Part shown: piece by piece, positions 52,186 to 63,303 of the stretch
How the letters are laid out: each line of letters starts with the position of its first letter
How positions within the stretch are numbered: position 1 is the first letter of the stretch
From: Deltaproteobacteria bacterium
GTDB lineage: Bacteria; Myxococcota_A; UBA9160; UBA6930
Reading direction: 5' to 3'
DNA length: 64,000 bases
NCBI GenBank assembly: GCA_029261815.1
Contig: JAJDAQ010000086.1
Coordinates: forward strand, 47,448-111,447
The notes under the pieces: generated by a model
What the model was told of the DNA's origin: nothing
Databases searched by the model: none
The model's input: the letters and a program-made list of their open reading frames with translations, nothing else
Program-made: the position numbers and the translations under genes

Positions 52186-53187
52186 TCAGGTCAGCAGCGT
52201 CTGGAACTCTTCGACCGACGAAGCGGCGTCATCGAGTCGCTCGAACGTCGCAACGTGGAAGAGCGCGTCGCCTTCGTTGACGACAGGGATCTCGCTTCGC
52301 CCGATGATCAGACCCGCGTCGGGACTCAGTACTTCCGACTCGTCTGATCCGAGCGGGTCGGCGACGTGAGCCAGGAGCTGGCCCTTCTCGACGCGGTCCC
52401 CCAGGTCGACGTGTGCGCGAACGAGACCGCCCTGGGGTGCCCTCGTCCAGCGACTGCCTTGCGCGATCATCGGAGGCGCTCCGGGTTTTGACTTGATCTC
52501 GGGCAACATGTTCAGGGCGCGCATCACGTTGAGGATTCCGCGTTCGCCGCCCCGGATGGCCCACTTGTCGAATCGCAGGGCTTCGCCGGCTTCGTACAGC
52601 AGCATCGGGATCCCGGTGTCGACCACCGTCTGTCGGAGCGACCCATCTCGCAAGTTGGAGTTCAGGATGACGGGCACCCCGAAGGCCCGCGCAAGGCGTT
52701 CGGTCTCCTGGTCGTCCAGGCACGCGCGAATCTGGGGAAGGTTGGTGCGATGCACCGCTCCTGTGTGCAGGTCGATCCCGTGGGTCGCGTTCGAGATGAT
52801 CTCGCGCACGAACGTGTCTGCGAGTCGCGCCGCCAAGGAGCCCTGACTTGAGCCGGGGAACGACCGGTTCAGGTCGCGTCGGTCGGGGAGGTAGCGACTC
52901 AGCGAGACGAAGCCGTACACGTTGACGACCGGGACCGCGATCAGGCTGCCGCGCAGGCTGGTGAGCGCGCGACGCCGCAGGATCCGCCGGATGATTTCGA
53001 CCCCGTTGATCTCGTCGCCATGGATGGCGGCGCAGATGAACAGCCGAGGGCCCGGCTTGCGGCCGTGAACGACTTCGACAGGGAGCGAGACTTCGGCACC
53101 CGACGCGCGTCGGCTCACCGGGATCTGGACGGTTCCGCGTGATCCCGGCGCGAACTCGACACCGCCGATATGGAGCGACTCACTCAC
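52186..53187 (-). CDS. Succinylglutamate desuccinylase/aspartoacylase (AstE/AspA) family zinc deacylase
   Basis: RLFICAAIHGDEINGVEI zinc-binding H..E motif and DLNRSFPG. Its start overlaps the rimK stop by 8 nt. Confidence 0.8.
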   Translation of the reverse strand: MSESLHIGGVEFAPGSRGTVQIPVSRRASGAEVSLPVEVVHGRKPGPRLFICAAIHGDEINGVEIIRRILRRRALTSLRGSLIAVPVVNVYGFVSLSRYLPDRRDLNRSFPGSSQGSLAARLADTFVREIISNATHGIDLHTGAVHRTNLPQIRACLDDQETERLARAFGVPVILNSNLRDGSLRQTVVDTGIPMLLYEAGEALRFDKWAIRGGERGILNVMRALNMLPEIKSKPGAPPMIAQGSRWTRAPQGGLVRAHVDLGDRVEKGQLLAHVADPLGSDESEVLSPDAGLIIGRSEIPVVNEGDALFHVATFERLDDAASSVEEFQTLLT

Positions 53188-54376
53188 CCGAAGACTGCCT
53201 CAGCGCCGACTTCGACGGCTTTCGCTTCTTCTTGGAACGCCGGTCCGGGGCGAGCCCTCGGAGCGTGAGTGTCTTGCCGAAGCAGAGCAGCACGTCTCCA
53301 GGCAGGATCTCGCGCGACATCATGGGGTTCGGGATCGAAATCGTGTCCCGGTGGATTGTCAGCACCAGCACGTCGTGATCCCTGAGCTTCGAGTCCGCGA
53401 TCGTCTTGTGCGCAAGCGAAGAGGTCTCGTCGATCGGAATCTCCATCACCCCGTAGCCACTCTGGAGGGTCAGGCGCTGACGGATGTCGATATCCGGGAA
53501 CAGCACCTCGTTCTCGATCAACTGCACGATCTCGCCGGCGACATCGATTCCTGTCGCAGTTTCGATGCCCTCGAGGCCGGGGGACGAGTTGACCTCCATG
53601 AGGATCGGGCCGTCCTTGCCCTCGAGCATGTCGACACCGGCCACCCGCAGCCCAAGAATCTGCGCTGCATGAACGGCCGTCCGTTCGTATTCGGGCTCCA
53701 GTTCCAGGACTTCGGCGCTACCGCCGCGGTGGATGTTGCTGCGAAACTCATCGCCCTGGGCCGTCCGTCGCATCGCGGCCACGACCCGGTCGCCGACGAC
53801 GAACGCGCGCACATCCTTGCCCTTGCTCTCCTTCACGAACTGCTGGAGCAAGACGCTCATCTTCGCCGGACCGGAAAGTGTTTCGATGATGGCTTCGGCG
53901 ACCGCGGACGTTTCGGCCAGGATGACGCCGATGCCCTGGGTGCCCTCGAGCAGCTTGACGACGACGGGCGGGCCTCCCATGCGTTCGATGCCGGGGAGGA
54001 TCTCGCTGCTATGCCGAACGAACAAGGTCTTCGGAATCCCGACGCGGTGGCGGGAAAGCACCTGCAGCGCCCGCAGCTTGTCTCGGGACACGGAGATGCC
54101 GTGGGACGGATTGACGCAGAAGACGCCCATCTGCTCGAACTGGCGAACGACCGCGGTGCCGAAGAATGTGACGGACGCGCCGATGCGCGGGATCACGGCA
54201 TCGTAGTCGCCGAGGCGTTTGTTCTTGTAGTAGAGCGTCGGGTCGCCTTCTTCGACTTCGATCGAGAACGACAGAGTATTCAGGACGCGCGCTTCATGTC
54301 CTCGCGACTCGGCGGCTTCCTTGAGGCGCTTCGTGCTGTAGAGGCGCGGGCCTCGGGAGAGAATCGCGATCTTCAT
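53180..54376 (-). CDS. rimK: RimK-type ATP-grasp alpha-L-glutamate ligase fused to a C-terminal TrkA_C (RCK_C) domain and a basic tail
   Basis: MKIAILSR...YDAVIPRIG, VVVKLLEGTQGIGV, FRSNIHRGG, MEVNSSPGLEGIE. The TrkA_C-like segment is GYGVMEIPIDETSSLAHKTIADSKLRDHDVLVLTIHRD...LPGDVLLCFG. The tail is RRSKKKRKPSKS. Confidence 0.85.
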   Translation of the reverse strand: MKIAILSRGPRLYSTKRLKEAAESRGHEARVLNTLSFSIEVEEGDPTLYYKNKRLGDYDAVIPRIGASVTFFGTAVVRQFEQMGVFCVNPSHGISVSRDKLRALQVLSRHRVGIPKTLFVRHSSEILPGIERMGGPPVVVKLLEGTQGIGVILAETSAVAEAIIETLSGPAKMSVLLQQFVKESKGKDVRAFVVGDRVVAAMRRTAQGDEFRSNIHRGGSAEVLELEPEYERTAVHAAQILGLRVAGVDMLEGKDGPILMEVNSSPGLEGIETATGIDVAGEIVQLIENEVLFPDIDIRQRLTLQSGYGVMEIPIDETSSLAHKTIADSKLRDHDVLVLTIHRDTISIPNPMMSREILPGDVLLCFGKTLTLRGLAPDRRSKKKRKPSKSALRQSSGE

Positions 54377-56777: not shown

Positions 56778-57749
56778 CTAACTTCCTGCGAGCTTGGCGA
56801 CGACGGGTGCGAACGCGTCCATGACTTCGGCGCCTACGGAGACGTAGGAAATGCCGAAGGCTTCGCGGCGCCGTTGCAGCTCCTCGACGATCTCGTCGAC
56901 GCTGCCGAAGAGCGCGTGCGGATGCGCGCGCATCTCGTCCGGCGTGATCCCGAATGCGCCTGCCATTCCCTCGGCGACGGCGCCCTGTCCTTCGCCGATG
57001 AAGGCAAAGTAGGCCGCGATCTCGAGCTCCAGGTCGTCGAACCGGTCGCCGGCGGCATCGCGGATCCATCCGACCTTGTTCGCCGTCTCTTCAGCCGTGC
57101 CTGTCTTCACACCGTCGGGACCGATCACGCCCGATTGGTTGTTGAAGTTGAGGCTGACGATGTCGGCTTCGCGGGCGGCCAGGGACAGCACGCGCTTGCC
57201 GCCGCCGCCAATCATGATCGGCGGGTGCGGTTTCTGGATCGGCTGCGGGGCCGCCTCGTAGCCGCTGATGTTGATGTGGTCTCCCTTGACGTCGATCTGG
57301 CCGGGCGCGAAATGCGCTTTCATGAACGCCACGGTTTCCGCGAGGCGGGAGATGCGGACGGGTGCCGGATCGAAGTCGAGCCCGATGGCTTCGTACTCGC
57401 CCGCAAGCCACCCCGCCCCGAGACCGAGTTCCAGGCGACCGCCGGAGAGCAGGTCCAACGTCGCCGCTTCCTTCGCCAGGACGGCCGCCGGTCGGTAGTC
57501 GATACAGAAAACGCGGCAGCCCACCTTCAGGGTCGACGTCGCTTCCGCCGCTACCGCGATCGCGGGAACGGCCGCCAATGTCTGCAGCGGATGATTCGTT
57601 GCTTCGAGCGCGGGGCCCGGCCCAAGGATGTGGTCGGCCAGATGCAGGGCTGAGAAGCCGAGGCCTTCGGCCTTGCGGGCGCGCTCTCGCCACTCGTCGC
57701 CGGAGTCTGCGCTGAAGCTCTGGACCGAGAATCGGAACGGATGGGGCAT
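56778..57749 (-). CDS. Luciferase-like (LLM class) flavin/F420-dependent oxidoreductase
   Basis: The start at 57749 follows AGGAG. Motifs FSALHLADHI, GRLELGLGAGW, KPHPPIMIGGGG. Confidence 0.8.
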   Translation of the reverse strand: MPHPFRFSVQSFSADSGDEWRERARKAEGLGFSALHLADHILGPGPALEATNHPLQTLAAVPAIAVAAEATSTLKVGCRVFCIDYRPAAVLAKEAATLDLLSGGRLELGLGAGWLAGEYEAIGLDFDPAPVRISRLAETVAFMKAHFAPGQIDVKGDHINISGYEAAPQPIQKPHPPIMIGGGGKRVLSLAAREADIVSLNFNNQSGVIGPDGVKTGTAEETANKVGWIRDAAGDRFDDLELEIAAYFAFIGEGQGAVAEGMAGAFGITPDEMRAHPHALFGSVDEIVEELQRRREAFGISYVSVGAEVMDAFAPVVAKLAGS

Positions 57750-57801
57750 GGCGGACTCCTGGCGCAAGGCAGCGGTGTCGATCGGACTGGAATCTTGCCG
57801 C

Positions 57802-57904: not shown

Positions 57905-58360
57905 ATGAGTGATCCGATCGCCGATGAACTGGCCATCCGAAACCTGGTAGCGCGCTACTCCGATGCCGTGAACCGTCGCGATGCCGAGGCCTGGGGCAAT
58001 TGCTGGGCCGAAGACGCCGTCTGGAAGATCATGGGCATGGCGCCCGAGGGCCGCGAGACCATCGTCGGCCTCTGGAGCCAGTTCATGGGTGGCTTCCCGT
58101 TCGTGGTGCAGATGCCGAGCGAGTGCCTGATCACCCTCAATGGGGACGAGGCCACCGTGCGCGCGTACCTGACCGAGACCGGCAAGGGACCGGACGGAAG
58201 CGGGATGCTGACGCTGGGCGTGTACCACGATCGCGTTCGGAGAGAGGCCGACGCCTGGCGCTTCACCGAGCGAAGCTTCCACGCGATGTACTCGGGCCCG
58301 ATGGACATGAGCGGTGAGCCCGCGGGCTTCCCGGCAGAGATTACGGAGGCGGCGAAATGA
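57905..58360 (+). CDS. NTF2/SnoaL_4-like protein
   Basis: DELAIRNLVARYSDAVNRRDAEAWGNCWAEDAVW pattern. Confidence 0.75.
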   Translation: MSDPIADELAIRNLVARYSDAVNRRDAEAWGNCWAEDAVWKIMGMAPEGRETIVGLWSQFMGGFPFVVQMPSECLITLNGDEATVRAYLTETGKGPDGSGMLTLGVYHDRVRREADAWRFTERSFHAMYSGPMDMSGEPAGFPAEITEAAK

Positions 58361-58716
58361 GCAGCGATCTGATCATCATCGCAGGCAAGGTGACTGTAGA
58401 CCCGGCAAAGCGGGACGAGACCCTCGCCAGTGCGGCACAGCTCATGGAAGACACACGCACCCAGAAGGGTTGCCTCGACTATGTGTGGTCTGCGGATCCG
58501 ACGGATCCGGCGCGCATCTACGTCTTCGAGCGCTGGGAGTGTCAGGCAGACCTCGCCGCCCACCTGAAGGGCGACTACTACCTGCGGATGCGGGACCACA
58601 TCGGCTCGGCCGGGCTGACGGGCGCCGAGACCCAGAAGTACCGGATCGACTGGGCCGAGCAGGTCTACGACGAGACGGGAACGCCGCGGGCGGATTTCTT
58701 CACCGCCCCCGACTGA
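58357..58716 (+). CDS. ABM-domain (antibiotic-biosynthesis-monooxygenase-like) protein
   Basis: 119 aa with IIIAGKVTVDPAKRDE...CLDYVWSADPTDPARIYVFERWECQADLAAH. ATGA overlap with the upstream gene. Confidence 0.7.
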   Translation: MSSDLIIIAGKVTVDPAKRDETLASAAQLMEDTRTQKGCLDYVWSADPTDPARIYVFERWECQADLAAHLKGDYYLRMRDHIGSAGLTGAETQKYRIDWAEQVYDETGTPRADFFTAPD

Positions 58717-58810
58717 GTGGGCCGGGTCGCTTCCGGGAGTGACCATGGGTCATCCGGATCGCGCCATTTCGCGTACAATGCCGGGTTCTCCCCTCGCTCT
58801 GGAGCCCGGA

Positions 58811-61800
58811 ATGCATCGCTCGCGTCTGATCCTGTTCCTTCTGCTTGTCCTTTCGATGATGGCGGCCCGCTGTTCGGCGCCCCAGATCGTGATCGTCGCG
58901 CCCGGCGACGAGGTCACGACGTTCGACTTCGTCGTCCAGGTGCAGTTGCCGCCGGGCGCGACGCTGAGCGCGGCCACATTGAACGGCTCGCCGCTGCCGC
59001 TCGCACCGAGTGGATCCGGCGTCTACGAAGCGGCCCTCCAGGCCGGCCCGCCGCTCCTCGACAACAATGTGCTGGTGGTCGATGCGCTCGACGCAGAGGG
59101 CGGTGCGATCTCCCGCGGCCACGACTTCCTCTACGCCCCGGGCAAGGCGCAGCTCTTCCGCATCACGGACGACGATGACCTGATCCGCGGCCCGCTCGCC
59201 CATTCGCGGCTGGGCGATTTCATGCTCGCCAATGGCACCGCGCGTTTCGTCGTGCAGGACGTGGCGCAGCGCGATCTCTACAGCGTGGGCCAGTTCGGCG
59301 GCAACCTGATCGACGCGGAACTGGTCAGCCGACCGGGGCGCGATCAGTTCCTCGAAGTACAGCCGATGCTCAACGTCGAGACCGTCATCAATGCCCAGAC
59401 CGCCGAGATCGTGAACGACGGCCAGGACGGAACCGCCGCGATCCTGCGCACCTGCGGGCCCGATGACCTACTCGACTTCGTCAATCCGTCGAGTGCGATC
59501 GCCGATGCCGGCATCACGCCACCCGCGTTCTTCGATGACCTCGACCTGCCGATCGAGGCGTGCACGGACTACATCCTCGAGCCGGGCACCTCGTACGTTC
59601 GGATGGACACCACGGTGTTCAACAACGACACCCAGGCGCTCTCGCTCGCGGTCGGAGACTGGTTGAACGGTGGCGGCCAGCTCGAGCAGTGGAGTTCGCC
59701 GCTGCTGATGGGCGAGGCCCTGATCGGCAACACCGACCTCGTTAGTTTCATCGGGTACGCGCAGGGCGAAGGCGTCGACTACGGCCTCCAGATCATTCCC
59801 GATCCGCTCGGCGCGCCGCCCAACATCTTTACGACCAGCGGAGTGAGCGTGTTGCTCTACAACGCGAACGCGCTGCTGACCCTGCTCGGGACGCCACCGC
59901 CGTTCACGGTCGCGGCCGGCGGACAGCGCACCTATACCCGCTACTTCTCCGTCGGAGACGGCTCCGGCGCGAATTCGGTCGATGTCGCGGCGTTGACCAC
60001 CCAGACGGCGACCAGTCCGCTCAGCGGCTGTGTCACCGTCGCGGGCACGCCGCTGGCCGGTTCGCGCGTCAGCGTGGTCACGTTCAACGGCGCTGGCCAG
60101 CCGGCCTTCATGCGCTCGCAGTTCGTGACCGAGCCGGGTCCGTGCCCGAATTACTCGGGCACGCTGCCGAGTGGTCAGTACCAGGTGGCCGCGGCGCGCG
60201 ACGGTTCGGCCTTCATCGGCGGGAACACGACACCGGCCTACGTGCCGGTGTCGATCGCGGCTCCGGGGCCCGGCGCCGTGGTGGACTTCGATCTGCCCGC
60301 ACCGGCACGGCTCGAGGTCACGGTCACCAATTCAGAGGGAGATCCGGAACCCGCACGCGTGACCGTGGTCGGTTTCGATCCGAGTCCGGCACAGACCTTT
60401 CCCGGGCCTTCGTTCCCGGGCTTCGGAGGGTCGACCCTGGCCGTCTTCCGCGACCCGAAGGATCGCAGTCCGTTTGGCATCGCGGCGTTCGAATACGCCG
60501 ATGCCGCCGGTCTGGCTGGATTGGATGTCGAGCCGGGCAACTACGAGGTCGTGGTCAGTCGCGGCACCGAGTACTCCATCGACCGGTTCACGGTGCAACT
60601 CGGCGGCGGCACGGTCACGGCGTTGCAGGCCCAGATCGATCGCGTGATCGATACGCCCGGCTTCATCTCGTCCGACTTCCACGTCCATGGCATCCACTCG
60701 GCTGACTCGCGGGTGTCGCATGAACGACGCGTCCTGCAGTTCGCGGGCGAGGGGGTCGAGAACCTGATCATGACCGACCACCACGTCCATACGGACCTGC
60801 GGCCCACGATCGCGGCCCTCGGTATGGTCGAGGCGCTGACGTCCACGGTTGGCGAAGAGATCACGACCTTCGACTATGGGCACTTCAACGGGTACCCGTT
60901 CACGGTCGACCCGAACGTCCCGAGTGGCGGTTCCACCGACTGGGGGCGTGCAGCTCCTCCTGGCGAGGACTTTCCGAGCTTCGGCAACTACAACGCGACG
61001 CCGCCCGAGATCTTCAGCCTCGCCGTGAACGGTGCCCAGGCAACGCCGGACACCACGGTCCAGATCAACCACATCGGAAGCTTCTTCAATCCGCTTCGGG
61101 TGGATACGTCGGTCGCGGGCCCGATCACCGACGGCCTTGACGATGCGCTACGCGCCGAGCGAAGGCTTCCGCCGGTATCGCAGGCGCCCAACCTGTTCTT
61201 CCCGTATCCGGCCCTCGAACTCTGGAATGGCTCGAGCCGAGGCGCCCAGAGCGAATTCCGCAACGAGCGGATCGGGGTCTGGATGAACCTGCTGAACAAG
61301 GGCTTGCCGACGACCATGATCTCGGACACCGACACCCACGACTACCGAACGCTCCGGTCCGCGGGCGCGCGAACGTGGACGGCAGCGTCGACGGACCGGG
61401 CACGTTTCATCTCGAGCGATGAAGTCGCGCGCTCGGTGGATGCCGGCAAGGCCGTGGGCGGTCAGGGCATCTACGTGCAGACCCGTCTGCTCGCGCGAGA
61501 CGGCTCGGAGGGGATCGCGGATCTCTCGCTCGGCGGTGTGACCCAGGTCTCTTCGGCCGACGGCAGTATCGATCTGGAGATCCACATCCAGGCGCCGGCG
61601 TGGGCGGCCTTCGACACCATCGAGGTGTACTCGAACGCACCGACGACGCCGGTGAACCCGGCCGCCCCGTACGCTTTCGTGGCCACGCCGGACCAGGTGC
61701 TGGTCGAAGGCGACTGCAGTCTGGCGACGGGTGGGGACGGTGATTTCGACATCGTGAGCGTTCCGATCGCGGGGACGAATGCGTCGCGTCAGGAAGCCCA

Positions 61801-62047
61801 CGTGGTCGTGCCGTATCGCGGCCTGACCGCGGACGCGTGGTTCGTGGTGGTGGTTCGGGGCGAGGACGGCGCGTGCGCGCCCATGTTCCCCGTCTACGCT
61901 TCGAGTCTGCGGCAGGACACGAACCTGTCCTTGGCCGACCTGCTCGACGGAAACGTGGGCGAGGACGGTGTCATGGCCCTCGGCGTCACCAACGCGTTGT
62001 ATGCCGATGTCGACGGGACGCCGGGGATCCAACCGTCCAACCCCTAG
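58811..62047 (+). CDS. Large secreted multidomain protein with CarboxypepD_reg-like repeats and a PHP/CehA-McbA-like metallohydrolase region
   Basis: ATG at 58811 lies 6 nt after GGAG. Signal-like N-terminus MHRSRLILFLLLVLSMMAARC. Motifs SGCVTVAGTPLAGSRVSVV and GTLPSGQYQVAAARDG. Metal-motif-like DFHVHGIHSADS, MTDHHVHTD, ISDTDTHD. Confidence 0.6.
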   Translation: MHRSRLILFLLLVLSMMAARCSAPQIVIVAPGDEVTTFDFVVQVQLPPGATLSAATLNGSPLPLAPSGSGVYEAALQAGPPLLDNNVLVVDALDAEGGAISRGHDFLYAPGKAQLFRITDDDDLIRGPLAHSRLGDFMLANGTARFVVQDVAQRDLYSVGQFGGNLIDAELVSRPGRDQFLEVQPMLNVETVINAQTAEIVNDGQDGTAAILRTCGPDDLLDFVNPSSAIADAGITPPAFFDDLDLPIEACTDYILEPGTSYVRMDTTVFNNDTQALSLAVGDWLNGGGQLEQWSSPLLMGEALIGNTDLVSFIGYAQGEGVDYGLQIIPDPLGAPPNIFTTSGVSVLLYNANALLTLLGTPPPFTVAAGGQRTYTRYFSVGDGSGANSVDVAALTTQTATSPLSGCVTVAGTPLAGSRVSVVTFNGAGQPAFMRSQFVTEPGPCPNYSGTLPSGQYQVAAARDGSAFIGGNTTPAYVPVSIAAPGPGAVVDFDLPAPARLEVTVTNSEGDPEPARVTVVGFDPSPAQTFPGPSFPGFGGSTLAVFRDPKDRSPFGIAAFEYADAAGLAGLDVEPGNYEVVVSRGTEYSIDRFTVQLGGGTVTALQAQIDRVIDTPGFISSDFHVHGIHSADSRVSHERRVLQFAGEGVENLIMTDHHVHTDLRPTIAALGMVEALTSTVGEEITTFDYGHFNGYPFTVDPNVPSGGSTDWGRAAPPGEDFPSFGNYNATPPEIFSLAVNGAQATPDTTVQINHIGSFFNPLRVDTSVAGPITDGLDDALRAERRLPPVSQAPNLFFPYPALELWNGSSRGAQSEFRNERIGVWMNLLNKGLPTTMISDTDTHDYRTLRSAGARTWTAASTDRARFISSDEVARSVDAGKAVGGQGIYVQTRLLARDGSEGIADLSLGGVTQVSSADGSIDLEIHIQAPAWAAFDTIEVYSNAPTTPVNPAAPYAFVATPDQVLVEGDCSLATGGDGDFDIVSVPIAGTNASRQEAHVVVPYRGLTADAWFVVVVRGEDGACAPMFPVYASSLRQDTNLSLADLLDGNVGEDGVMALGVTNALYADVDGTPGIQPSNP

Positions 62048-62067
62048 CCCGCGCGGAGGTCCGTCCC

Positions 62068-63303
62068 GTGCAGGGTCATCGACGGGCGTTGATCGCGTGC
62101 GCGGGCGTCGTCTGGGCGCTCGGCGCCGCGGGCGCTGCCGGCGCGGCGGTCGATCTCGAGGTGTTCGAACGCGCCGCTCCGACGGTCGTCGCGATAGGCG
62201 AGGTCGTCGCGGTCGAACCGCTGGACCCTCGCGCGTGGCGGCTGGACATGCGTTGCGACGAACCCCTGAACGGCGATGGCGATGGCGTCATGACCCGCTC
62301 GGTGGTGTTCGAATCGCCCATGCGGGGTGGGGCAACGCCCGCCGAAGTCGGAGACCGACTCCTCCTGGCACTCGAACCCCTGCGACTGACCACGGCCTGG
62401 CGCAAGCGACTGGGTGCCTCCGCGACGGCGGCCCACTGGACCGTGGCTGACAACGGTCGCGCCCTGGTCCGTCGCCCTGCATCCGGTGCGATCGAGATCC
62501 TTCGGCATTTCCTGCGGTTGCCCGCGATCGCACGCAACGGCTCAGACGGCGTGCGACATCTGTTGGCGCTGGCGGCCGAGGTGCCGGTTCCGTTGGGTGC
62601 CGCCGCCGCCCGCCGTCTCCGGTCGACGCGTCCGGGCGGGCCGGTGCCGGCCCCGGTTGCGGACCTGGTCGTTCGGTCGTTGCGGCGCGAGCAGGGCGAC
62701 ATCGTCAACGCGGTGTTGCAGTGGATCGAGGAAGCGCGGCCCGCCGGTCTCGTCGATGCGCTGGAGCACGCATCGGCTGCCGAGGACGCACCGGCCGCCG
62801 TCTTCGAAGCGCGCGCGCGTCTTTCGTCAGGGCTGGAGCCGCGCACGATCCTGGCATTGGGAGATCACGCCGAAGCCACGCACCGCGAGGTCGCGGCCCG
62901 CTGGGCCGCCCGCGCCCAGGGGGATCGACTCGAGGATTGGGCCACCCACGATCCCGATGCCGACGTGCGCATCGCGGCGATACGCCGGCGCGCGGCCATC
63001 GGTCTCGATTCTCAGTGGGGCCGGGGCGCGTTCGGCGACGCCGAGCCCCGGGTCCGCGGCGAGGCCGCCCGGATCTGGGCGGCCGCTGGCGACGCCGACA
63101 TCGGGCCGATTCGCGACGCGGTGTTCGGCGACGACATCGCCGTCGCGCAGACTGCGATCCTGGCACTGCATCTCTCGGGCCGGCCAGAGGCCATAAGCGT
63201 CCTCGAAGAAGCGGCCCGCACGCACCCGTCCGCGGAGCTGCGGAAGGTCGCCGGGATCGCTTTGGGGCAGCCCCTGGGCGAAGTGCATTTGCCAGCGGAT
63301 TGA
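62068..63303 (+). CDS. HEAT-repeat (PBS-lyase-type) protein with a signal-like N-terminus
   Basis: GTG at 62068 follows GGAGG. N-terminus MQGHRRALIACAGVVWALGAAGAAGA. Repeats HDPDADVRIAAIRR, DAEPRVRGEAARIW, HPSAELRKVAGIAL. Confidence 0.6.
   Translation: MQGHRRALIACAGVVWALGAAGAAGAAVDLEVFERAAPTVVAIGEVVAVEPLDPRAWRLDMRCDEPLNGDGDGVMTRSVVFESPMRGGATPAEVGDRLLLALEPLRLTTAWRKRLGASATAAHWTVADNGRALVRRPASGAIEILRHFLRLPAIARNGSDGVRHLLALAAEVPVPLGAAAARRLRSTRPGGPVPAPVADLVVRSLRREQGDIVNAVLQWIEEARPAGLVDALEHASAAEDAPAAVFEARARLSSGLEPRTILALGDHAEATHREVAARWAARAQGDRLEDWATHDPDADVRIAAIRRRAAIGLDSQWGRGAFGDAEPRVRGEAARIWAAAGDADIGPIRDAVFGDDIAVAQTAILALHLSGRPEAISVLEEAARTHPSAELRKVAGIALGQPLGEVHLPAD

Follow-up and report, generated by a model that had tools for sequence, protein, structure and literature searches.

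In this study, we analysed two adjacent genes, here called A and B, within a 64,000-nucleotide stretch of DNA (the window; contig JAJDAQ010000086.1, positions 47,448 to 111,447) from a bacterium assigned to the Deltaproteobacteria. The product of gene A is a large exported member of the PHP superfamily that we consider likely to be an envelope-located hydrolase with a trinuclear metal centre, most probably a phosphoesterase, and to be served by the product of gene B as a dedicated exported HEAT-repeat partner. This reading was built on five properties that were observed directly, namely the domain architecture, the PHP homology, the invariance of the metal ligands, the export signals of both proteins and the co-conservation of the two genes. 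Features are listed below in window coordinates, all on the + strand, with the basis of each assignment in brackets.

58801..58804, +, GGAG ribosome-binding site of A, 6 nt 5' of the ATG (sequence reading)
58811..62047, +, gene A, predicted 1078-aa exported multidomain PHP-type metallohydrolase (open reading frame, homologues, model)
58811..58873, +, signal peptide of A (MHRSR + LILFLLLVLSMMAA), ending at the conserved Cys21 (sole hydrophobic segment of A)
58883..59161, +, N-terminal Ig-like beta domain of A, aa ~25-117 (all-beta, pLDDT >90 in the model)
59183..60010, +, beta-supersandwich of A, YidC-P1/galactose-mutarotase-like, aa ~125-400 (Foldseek and profile search)
60011..60640, +, two CarboxypepD_reg-like beta-sandwiches of A, aa ~401-610, with Cys pair C407/C445 (PF13620 in homologues; all-beta model)
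60659..61444, +, PHP-type catalytic domain of A, aa 617-878 (NF038032 and domain profile against PDB)
61448..62044, +, C-terminal beta-sandwich of A, aa 880-1078, with Cys pair C969/C1022 (model secondary structure, pLDDT 87-96 over most of it)
62055..62059, +, GGAGG ribosome-binding site of B, 8 nt 5' of the GTG (sequence reading)
62068..63303, +, gene B, 411-aa exported HEAT-repeat partner (open reading frame, GTG start)
62068..62148, +, signal peptide of B (MQGHRR + ALIACAGVVWALGAAGAAGAA) (sole hydrophobic segment of B)
62149..62934, +, N-terminal region of B, aa ~28-289 (conserved columns, 36-sequence alignment)
62935..63282, +, PBS-type HEAT repeats of B, aa ~290-405 (Pfam HEAT_2 and profile matches)

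Gene Boundaries and Export Signals

The frame of gene A runs from an ATG at 58811 to a TAG at 62045-62047 and is enclosed by a longer open reading frame from a GTG at 58739. The ATG was taken as the start because of the spacing of the GGAG and because the N-termini of homologues align with the MHRSR start of A. Third-position GC of 0.85 in A and 0.80 in B indicates that both are real coding frames, and their coordinates and sizes agree with those of a first-pass annotation of this DNA, which had reported products of 1078 and 411 aa; the spacer between them is, as reported there, exactly 20 nt. A total of 564 homologues of A were found, the best 120 of which are all full length, and AlphaFold modelled full-length A with a pLDDT of 83.5 and a pTM of 0.82. 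The family is extensive, with 1388 clusters (50% identity) matching at E<=1e-30, whose members are exported multidomain PHP proteins of ~1000-1100 aa. Identities of 50-79% among homologues indicate vertical conservation across the whole lineage, in which A is present in one or two copies and its C-terminus is not polymorphic.

Both A and B have a single hydrophobic segment, located at the N-terminus, which bears out the signal-like N-termini described at first pass and points to export of both proteins rather than to a cytoplasmic location. The hydrophobic core of the signal is followed by a cysteine in 190 of 205 members of the A family (93%), the residue at -1 to it being Ala, Gly or Ser in ~56% and Arg in 24. 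In A this residue, Cys21, is the sole unpaired cysteine among seven; the others form three pairs (C215/C251, C407/C445 and C969/C1022), two of which are invariant, consistent with disulfides. Judging from the sequence, A is probably lipid-anchored via Cys21, with less certainty for the A of the present locus, which reads AARC, has Arg at -1 and does not match the standard lipobox [LVI][ASTVI][GAS]C. Orthologues of B carry signal peptides, some with clear lipoboxes (LAGC, LAAC, LTAC); B itself has no lipobox, its LIAC being too near the N-terminus to serve as one.

Non-Catalytic Domains of A

From its N-terminus onwards, A consists of the signal peptide, the conserved cysteine, an Ig-like domain, a supersandwich, two CarboxypepD_reg-like sandwiches, the PHP domain and a C-terminal sandwich. 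The Ig-like domain is variable across the superfamily, with low conservation, and lies outside the conserved core (profile positions 115-1083). Conserved in the supersandwich are D136, R154, D168, D178, D222, N271 and the Cys pair C215/C251; Foldseek matched this domain to 3bs6 (YidC P1, TM 0.54), 3k25 and 4bze (GalM) with a probability of 1.00, and the best five matches of its profile against PDB were all to YidC P1 and weak (E 0.05-0.25). The supersandwich also resembles the accessory domains of glycosidases.

The CarboxypepD_reg-like segments proposed at first pass are backed by the beta-sandwiches of the AlphaFold model and by the relatives of A. In A itself no PF13620 was found by Pfam, even at E<=10, but 16 of 30 close homologues have this domain at the corresponding place, as do eight of nine distant members of the family, six of those eight scoring above the 32.3-bit cutoff. 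On the basis of these relatives the domain was assigned to A, in which by homology it is present and has diverged past Pfam detection. The first part of the C-terminal sandwich, to aa 943, is covered by the CehA/McbA domain model (NF038032) that also matches the catalytic domain.

The PHP Catalytic Domain

The NCBIfam model NF038032 (CehA_McbA_metalo) matched aa 617-943 of A with an E of 1.1e-21 and 77.7 bits, narrowly under its curated cutoff of 80 bits. It also matched all 30 relatives of A that were tested at E<=1e-5 (best E 1.3e-24), and one distant relative is named 'CehA/McbA family metallohydrolase' in RefSeq; Pfam PF02811 did not match A. When a profile of the domain was compared with PDB, the best matches were 9etk (E=2.7e-6) and 3e38 (E=9e-4), followed by 2anu, 7ug9, 4gc3 and 1m65, with the motifs HxH..D, TDH, E..GHFN and SDxH aligned, and the sole non-PHP match was unrelated (E=0.39). 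By this significant sequence similarity, A belongs to the PHP superfamily. The first-pass annotation had likened A to PHP/CehA-type hydrolases, which these matches uphold; its remark that neither protein resembles a characterised enzyme was overstated for A, whose catalytic domain is recognisably related to the characterised enzymes CehA/McbA, RNase AM and the 3E38/Sb-PDE group.

The HxH and DxH motifs that were noticed in the sequence (DFHVHGIHS, aa 622-630; MTDHHVHTD, aa 654-662; DTDTHD, aa 839-844) proved to contain invariant histidines and aspartates. Ten residues of A are invariant (H624, H626, D632, H657, E683, H691, H754, E803, D841 and H843), and all except E803 are predicted metal ligands, invariant in 79 homologues, 36 diverse domains and 84 diverse full-length members. 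By alignment and spacing these nine correspond one-to-one with H61/H63/D68/H93/E135/H142/H203/D260/H262 of No-PDE/3E38, for which a trinuclear zinc site was demonstrated experimentally (PMC11656708). Together they complete the PHP ligand pattern of HxH, Asp/His following the first strand, His, bridging Glu, His, His and DxH. Conservation in A is highest in the PHP domain. The PHP fold is a distorted (beta/alpha)7-barrel whose ligands cluster where the strands end C-terminally. In the full-length model of A, strands and helices alternate through aa 617-878 and the ligands lie at strand ends; by homology, they would cluster in space. The model of the isolated catalytic domain was of low confidence (pLDDT 55.6), and the best eight Foldseek matches to it were all PHP proteins, individually non-significant (E 0.015-0.8).

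The 3E38-type PHP phosphoesterases, which include the phosphodiesterases Sb-PDE and No-PDE (Sphingobium/Novosphingobium), align with A at HxH..D, DH, E..GHFNA and SDxH and have the nine-ligand trinuclear centre predicted for A, with no HEAT partner mentioned in the excerpt of their description (PMC11656708). The 3E38 structure was deposited as that of a two-domain PHP protein. These enzymes are of ~340 aa versus 1078 aa for A, and substrate-pocket residues are not comparable at such a distance. The best solved-structure match of A, covering at least the first half of the domain, is RNase AM/YciV (TrpH; 9etk, 7ug9), a PHP-family 5'-3' exoribonuclease and pAp phosphatase that has the HxH-x(5-6)-D, TDHD and E motifs in common with A (PMC11528712). 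RNase AM is a cytoplasmic single-domain protein of ~290 aa acting on short oligonucleotides, whereas A is exported and carries large insertions in the barrel's second half. CehA/McbA aside, the detectable relatives are all phosphoesterases or nucleases.

The phosphoesterase assignment has to be weighed against the possibility that A is a periplasmic CehA/McbA-like carbamate, carboxyl-ester or amide hydrolase of a small natural or xenobiotic compound, with B as an accessory binding protein. Characterised members of the CehA/McbA family hydrolyse carbamate esters, not phosphoesters. Like A, these carbamate (carbaryl) hydrolases have a PHP-like catalytic domain; their family model is the best curated match of A, the RefSeq name of the distant relative agrees, and the genome surroundings of A are rich in catabolic genes. 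In addition, McbA is periplasmic, CehA has an N-terminal signal peptide and the histidines of the PHP-like domain are essential (PMC8292978). However, A scores under the family cutoff, and a tblastn search of 72,556 plasmids found nothing, which makes the relationship a remote one, beyond the reach of BLAST. Carriers of cehA/mcbA are expected to be among those plasmids. Unlike mobile xenobiotic genes, A is vertically conserved, is not tied to mobile elements and has no fixed catabolic neighbours. It also differs in having a dedicated HEAT-repeat partner and ~600 extra N-terminal residues (the Ig-like domain, the supersandwich and the two CarboxypepD_reg-like modules), and four added large beta modules are hard to square with a small-molecule esterase. 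With the other detectable relatives all being phosphoesterases or nucleases, we regard a CehA/McbA-like activity as unlikely, and favour a phosphoesterase.

The HEAT-Repeat Protein B

The PBS-type HEAT repeats recognised in B at first pass were confirmed by Pfam HEAT_2 (PF13646), which matched aa 323-400 with 30.9 bits versus a cutoff of 27.7 and is present in 34 of 36 orthologues, and by matches of the B profile to alphaRep (E=3.5e-60), CpcE/F (E=6e-6; phycocyanobilin lyase subunits) and MTH187 (E=1.6e-6). These profile matches are limited to the C-terminal third of B, where the likeness to PBS-lyase-type HEAT proteins, YibA included, is strong. What sets B apart from those proteins is its signal peptide, together with a conserved N-terminal region (~250 aa) that has no match in Pfam, NCBIfam or PDB; nothing in B suggests bilin-lyase chemistry. 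Eight residues of that region, W81, E82, E83, R91, W111, R114, P137 and R273, are invariant in 36 sequences. Sixteen full-length orthologues of B were identified, after which scores fall sharply to those of generic HEAT proteins.

Conservation of the Gene Pair and Its Neighbourhood

Gene B directly follows A in 59 of 64 loci (92%), and the gap is -4 nt (start/stop overlap) in about 22 loci. Many uncultured bacteria of the Binatia/Myxococcota type have retained the two genes side by side, so that the co-conservation named as a check at first pass is borne out. B is absent beside the second copies of A in the same genomes and beside distant members of the A family, and it is therefore dispensable for the basic enzyme; those second copies retain every catalytic residue. 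It also diverges faster than A, with a mean column identity of 36% versus 58% and a closest relative that is 50% versus 79% identical. Catabolic genes, such as acyl-CoA dehydrogenases, amidohydrolases and SnoaL/ABM, abound in the genome around the pair.

The first-pass annotation had further proposed that A and B are an extracytoplasmic hydrolase and binder belonging to a catabolic island centred on a SnoaL/ABM pair and acting on the island's substrate. SnoaL_4 and ABM genes are indeed immediately upstream of A in the window, and SnoaL, ABM, A, B and an acyl-CoA-dehydrogenase-like gene form a same-strand run with gaps of -4, 94, 20 and 8 nt. No terminator-like site was found within this run, which says little, since this was a simple consensus scan that returned fewer sites than expected by chance. 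Of 85 loci examined, only L010 also had this gene order, which identifies the adjacency as lineage-specific synteny. In the locus with the closest orthologue of A (L001, 79% identity) the upstream genes are different and lack SnoaL/ABM, and no neighbour other than B is common to more than 12 of the 85 loci. A role on an island substrate is thus improbable.

We give similarly little credence to a toxin-immunity pair, in which A would be a secreted effector or toxin, such as a nuclease or phosphodiesterase, and B would inhibit it or confer immunity to it. The position of B directly downstream, its frequent translational coupling and its much faster evolution would fit such a pair, as would the fact that some PHP enzymes are nucleases. 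Against this, A is conserved in one or two copies across the lineage with a C-terminus that is not polymorphic, and ordinary Sec-type signals are found on both proteins. No secretion-system, Rhs/CDI or defence markers were found, and PADLOC returned no defence-system match for A or B at E<=0.01. Moreover, the catalytically intact second copies of A without B would be self-harming were B an essential antidote. Least probable of all is that A has no catalytic function and serves the envelope as a structural or adhesive protein, with a PHP domain of purely structural role, as in E. coli Pol III alpha. A consists mostly of beta-sandwich modules whose best fold matches are pilins and adhesin-like proteins, and inactive PHP domains are on record (PMC3666897), but such domains have lost their metal ligands, whereas all nine are invariant in 84 diverse members of the A family and lie in its most conserved part.

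Proposed Mechanism

For the favoured pairing of an exported PHP phosphoesterase with a HEAT-repeat partner, we infer metal content, bond type, lipoprotein status, physical A-B interaction and substrate as follows. A would be exported via its N-terminal signal peptide, and its PHP domain is predicted to hold three metals. Homology assigns H624, H626 and D841 to the alpha metal, H691 and H754 to the beta metal, E683 to a bridge between these two, and D632, H657 and H843 to the gamma metal. In such a centre, water would be activated by the alpha and beta metals, with the gamma metal serving as Lewis acid for the leaving group, and the most likely chemistry is hydrolysis of a phosphate mono- or diester. 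The catalytic domain is surrounded by four beta-sandwich modules, one of them the carbohydrate-module-like supersandwich, which suggests that the periplasmic or cell-surface substrate is large or polymeric. B would be exported separately, from the same transcript as A and often with coupled translation. Its HEAT solenoid and conserved N-terminal region most likely bind A or the substrate of A, in the role of adaptor, scaffold or regulator.

A bolder version, which we hold only as a long shot, is that A and B constitute an undescribed lineage-wide envelope system of Binatia/Myxococcota-type bacteria, in which A is a lipid-anchored trinuclear PHP phosphodiesterase acting on a phosphodiester polymer and B, through its conserved N-terminal region and HEAT solenoid, is an obligatory substrate-delivery or regulatory subunit. 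The polymer might be a phosphoglycan of the envelope or capsule, or else nucleic acid or organophosphate from outside the cell that serves as a phosphorus source. If true, A would be the first known case of a PHP enzyme working with a HEAT-repeat subunit of its own.

Significance

Most of what is known of PHP enzymes concerns small phosphatases and nucleases of the cytoplasm, or domains within DNA polymerases, and to our knowledge no member of the large exported multidomain family to which A belongs has been characterised. The A-B pair is a known enzyme class in a new form and not a new kind of system; it overturns no concept, and large exported hydrolases without an assigned substrate are common. 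What it adds is that one clade of an exported PHP family gained a dedicated exported HEAT-repeat partner. In practice, the analysis yields a clear annotation of domains, catalytic residues and operon partner, together with a short list of testable activities. The pair is highly conserved and occurs in the majority of genomes of an uncultured but abundant lineage from soil and sediment and associated with sponges, which suggests an important role in the envelope or in nutrient scavenging.

Genes A and B

The first-pass annotation had described a large ORF followed 20 nt downstream by a second, and both genes were confirmed at those positions, A with 1078 codons for amino acids and B with 411. 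Third-position GC content is 0.85 in A and 0.80 in B in a genome of 65% GC, which is the pattern of real genes. A longer A could start at GTG 58739; the N-termini of homologues line up instead with the MHRSR start. The three metal-type motifs picked out in the annotation lie at aa 622-630, 654-662 and 839-844 of A. A promoter/terminator scan and an Rfam scan of 57.4-64 kb gave no terminator, promoter or riboswitch clue. The three minus-strand ORFs below were assigned by eye from their translation and by match to two fetched homologous loci, L001 (the closest orthologue of A) and L010 (MAG OFTM159), and the Shine-Dalgarno-like motifs were read from the sequence.

Features in and around the A-B pair (coordinates, strand, feature)
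53180-54376, minus, RimK-like ATP-grasp ORF
54568-~57000, minus, large molybdopterin-oxidoreductase-like ORF
56778-57767, minus, luciferase-like monooxygenase ORF
57905-58360, plus, SnoaL_4 gene, upstream of A
58357-58716, plus, ABM gene, overlapping SnoaL_4 by 4 nt and 94 nt upstream of A
58801-58804, plus, Shine-Dalgarno-like GGAG before A
58811-62047, plus, A, ATG start, stop codon 62045-62047, 1078 aa
62055-62059, plus, Shine-Dalgarno-like GGAGG before B
62068-63303, plus, B, GTG start, 411 aa
63312-64000, plus, 5' part of an acyl-CoA-dehydrogenase-like (ACAD) gene, starting 8 nt after the B stop and running off the window

The catalytic domain of A

Pfam returned nothing useful for A even at E <= 10, its sole match being a spurious one to a transmembrane family. 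The NCBIfam model NF038032, 'CehA/McbA family metallohydrolase', matches aa 617-943 (E = 1.1e-21) at 77.7 bits, just below its curated cutoff of 80 bits, and is also matched by 30 of 30 A relatives tested. Neither phmmer with A nor the full-length family profile retrieved anything relevant from PDB sequences, so the catalytic domain alone was aligned across 36 diverse members of the family (28-43% identity to the window protein) and the resulting domain-only profile was searched against the PDB. The matches were essentially all PHP-family structures, the sole exception being an unrelated mitoribosome-associated LYR-family protein (E = 0.39).

PHP-family matches of the domain-only profile (PDB entry, protein, E value)
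9etk, RNase AM/YciV, 2.7e-6
3e38, 'two-domain protein containing predicted PHP-like metal-dependent phosphoesterase', 9e-4
2anu, TM0559, 2.5e-3
7ug9, 5'-3' exoribonuclease, 6.6e-3
4gc3, histidinol-phosphate phosphatase, 0.014
1m65, YcdX, 0.24

The HxH...D, TDH(D), E and SDxH motifs coincide in these alignments, and GHFNA is additionally common to 3e38. Work published in 2024 on Sb-PDE and No-PDE, which are relatives of 3E38, showed that their trinuclear zinc site is fully occupied, with H61, H63 and D260 as alpha ligands, H142 and H203 as beta ligands, E135 bridging alpha and beta, and D68, H93 and H262 as gamma ligands (PMC11656708). By alignment and spacing, the equivalents in A are H624/H626/D841 (alpha), H691/H754 (beta), E683 (bridging) and D632/H657/H843 (gamma). 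None of the nine positions varies among 79 reference-genome homologues, among the 36 diverse sequences or among 84 full-length members with pairwise identity below 55%. The same holds for E803; D622 is invariant in the second and third of these sets, the broader two. No other part of A is as highly conserved as the PHP domain. On its sequence profile and ligand conservation the catalytic domain can be assigned to PHP and, by homology, its metal ligands would cluster in space.

Modelled alone, the catalytic region (aa 612-885, window 60644-61465) is poor (pLDDT 55.6), probably because the PHP barrel needs the neighbouring beta domains to pack against; within the full-length model the same residues are mostly at 70-96 pLDDT, two low-confidence loops excepted. 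The top eight Foldseek matches of the low-confidence isolated model, each at E 0.015-0.8, are all PHP, comprising the PHP domains of Pol III alpha, PolC and DnaE1, and TM0559.

The most likely chemistry of A is phosphoester hydrolysis, since phosphatases, phosphodiesterases and nucleases account for all the solved relatives that could be detected, and since its ligand set matches the 3E38/Sb-PDE type. The serious rival is that A is a CehA-like carbamate or ester hydrolase, for which the best curated family match, CehA/McbA, speaks, and to which we give a small but real probability. A tblastn search of plasmids with the catalytic and C-terminal part of A, aimed at cehA/mcbA, returned no match. 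A purely structural role is unlikely given the invariant metal ligands.

Domain architecture and family of A

The full-length AlphaFold2 model of A is confident (mean pLDDT 83.5, pTM 0.82), and gives the layout below.

Domain layout of A (aa, domain)
1-21, signal peptide
~25-117, Ig-like beta domain
~125-400 (window 59183-60010), large beta-supersandwich
~401-610, two beta-sandwiches
617-878, alpha/beta catalytic domain
880-1078, C-terminal beta-sandwich

Of 30 close relatives, 16 have CarboxypepD_reg (PF13620) at the position of the ~401-610 sandwiches, as do 8 of 9 distant relatives; Pfam did not detect it in A of the window itself. Whole-chain Foldseek is dominated by beta-sandwich matches (pilins, SpyCEP, glycosidase accessory domains), with PHP absent from the top 50. 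The supersandwich matches, at Foldseek probability 1.00, the YidC periplasmic P1 domain (3bs6, TM 0.54), Slr1438, galactose mutarotase and glycosidase accessory domains. YidC P1 also fills the top five PDB matches of its domain-only profile, weak matches (E 0.05-0.25) that agree with Foldseek and are not significant alone. From the flanking beta modules, one with a carbohydrate-module-like fold, we infer that the substrate may be large or polymeric. The supersandwich residues D136, R154, D168, D178, D222 and N271 are kept across the whole superfamily, and many Asp/Asn/Gly motifs (NDGQDG, GPDDLLDF) are also invariant in the close A family; they could bind calcium or belong to the substrate cleft.

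Hundreds of full-length homologues (~1070-1130 aa, 50-79% identity to A, none annotated) were found in metagenome-assembled genomes labelled Candidatus Binatia, Myxococcota or 'Deltaproteobacteria'. In an exhaustive A-profile search, 3697 representative clusters scored E <= 1e-3, and 1388 reached E <= 1e-30. Profile positions ~115-1083 make up the conserved core. A RefSeq Vulgatibacter sp. protein named 'CehA/McbA family metallohydrolase' is identical to one distant family member.

Predicted export of A and B

The sole hydrophobic segment of A is its N-terminus. Two cysteine pairs, C215/C251 and C407/C445, are invariant, and with the third, C969/C1022, are consistent with disulfide bonds outside the cytoplasm. 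The only unpaired cysteine, Cys21, directly follows the hydrophobic core, and 190 of 205 family members have a cysteine at the equivalent position. Taken together, these features make export of A well supported by sequence. The residue at -1 is Ala, Gly or Ser in about 56% of the members with this cysteine, matching a standard lipobox, and Arg in A of the window and 24 others, so that lipid anchoring is likely for the family and uncertain for this protein. With 82 Asp and 40 Glu but just 46 Arg and 4 Lys, mature A is extremely acidic and has a net charge of -72. Signal peptides are also found at the start of B and its orthologues, several of which have clear lipoboxes. McbA is demonstrably periplasmic, and CehA has an N-terminal signal peptide (PMC8292978).

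The HEAT-repeat protein B

The earlier description of B as a PBS-lyase-type HEAT protein held up: Pfam HEAT_2 matches aa 323-400 above cutoff and is present in 34 of 36 orthologues, and a search with the B profile brings up alphaRep proteins, MTH187, the CpcE/F subunits of phycocyanobilin lyase and YibA (E down to 3.5e-60). These HEAT-type matches are restricted to the C-terminal third. The first ~250 mature residues (aa ~28-289, window 62149-62934) have no Pfam, NCBIfam or PDB match, and the family's most conserved positions (W81, E82, E83, R91, W111, R114, P137) sit in this N-terminal region. The B-profile search gave 16 full-length orthologues, below which scores fall sharply to those of generic HEAT proteins. 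Sequence change is faster in B than in A, with a mean column identity of 36% versus 58% and a nearest relative at 50% versus 79%.

Conservation of the A-B pair

On four long contigs a gene of 413-419 aa directly follows the ~1080-aa gene every time, and the flanks vary. Loci were taken from one genome per species. In 64 of them the sequence continues for 1 kb or more downstream, and B adjoins A in 59 of these 64. The end of A and the start of B share 4 nt in about 22 of the 59, which suggests translational coupling. The five exceptions, which include second A copies in genomes whose other copy has B, are deep branches of the A tree with every metal ligand kept and unrelated genes downstream. 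A B-like neighbour is also absent beside three more distant A-family members. It follows from both absences that B was recruited in one clade and is dispensable for the basic enzyme. Second A copies with all metal ligands and no B were seen at loci L020, L036, L046, L050, L052 and L065, with same-MAG partners at L030, L025, L027 and L053; L036, L046, L050 and L052 form one clade of B-less copies.

That A copies without B retain their catalytic residues makes a toxin/immunity pair unlikely. A defence system was also judged unlikely, no defence-system signature having been found around the pair.

Flanking-ORF clustering over 85 loci revealed no third conserved gene, none being common to more than 12 of the 85; the large clusters were antisense shadow ORFs inside A and B. 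The pair had been proposed to serve the substrate of the SnoaL/ABM gene group upstream, a link that did not survive comparison: these genes lie upstream of A in just one other locus, L010, with which alone the window shares the order luciferase-like monooxygenase-SnoaL-ABM-A-B-ACAD. Such lineage-specific synteny makes that role unlikely, and the conserved unit is A plus B, not the island. As the order A-B-ACAD also occurs in both L001 and L010, the operon may extend further downstream in that sub-lineage.

Discussion

The CehA/McbA enzyme class is already known, and the NCBI pipeline names some A relatives by that domain. No characterised example was found either of the ~1080-aa exported layout seen in this very large and uncharacterised family or of a conserved HEAT-repeat partner that has an unmatched N-terminal region and is often translationally coupled. 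The reading that we favour, with moderate confidence and from sequence comparison, is that A would be an envelope-located hydrolase with a trinuclear metal centre and B its dedicated exported HEAT-repeat partner.
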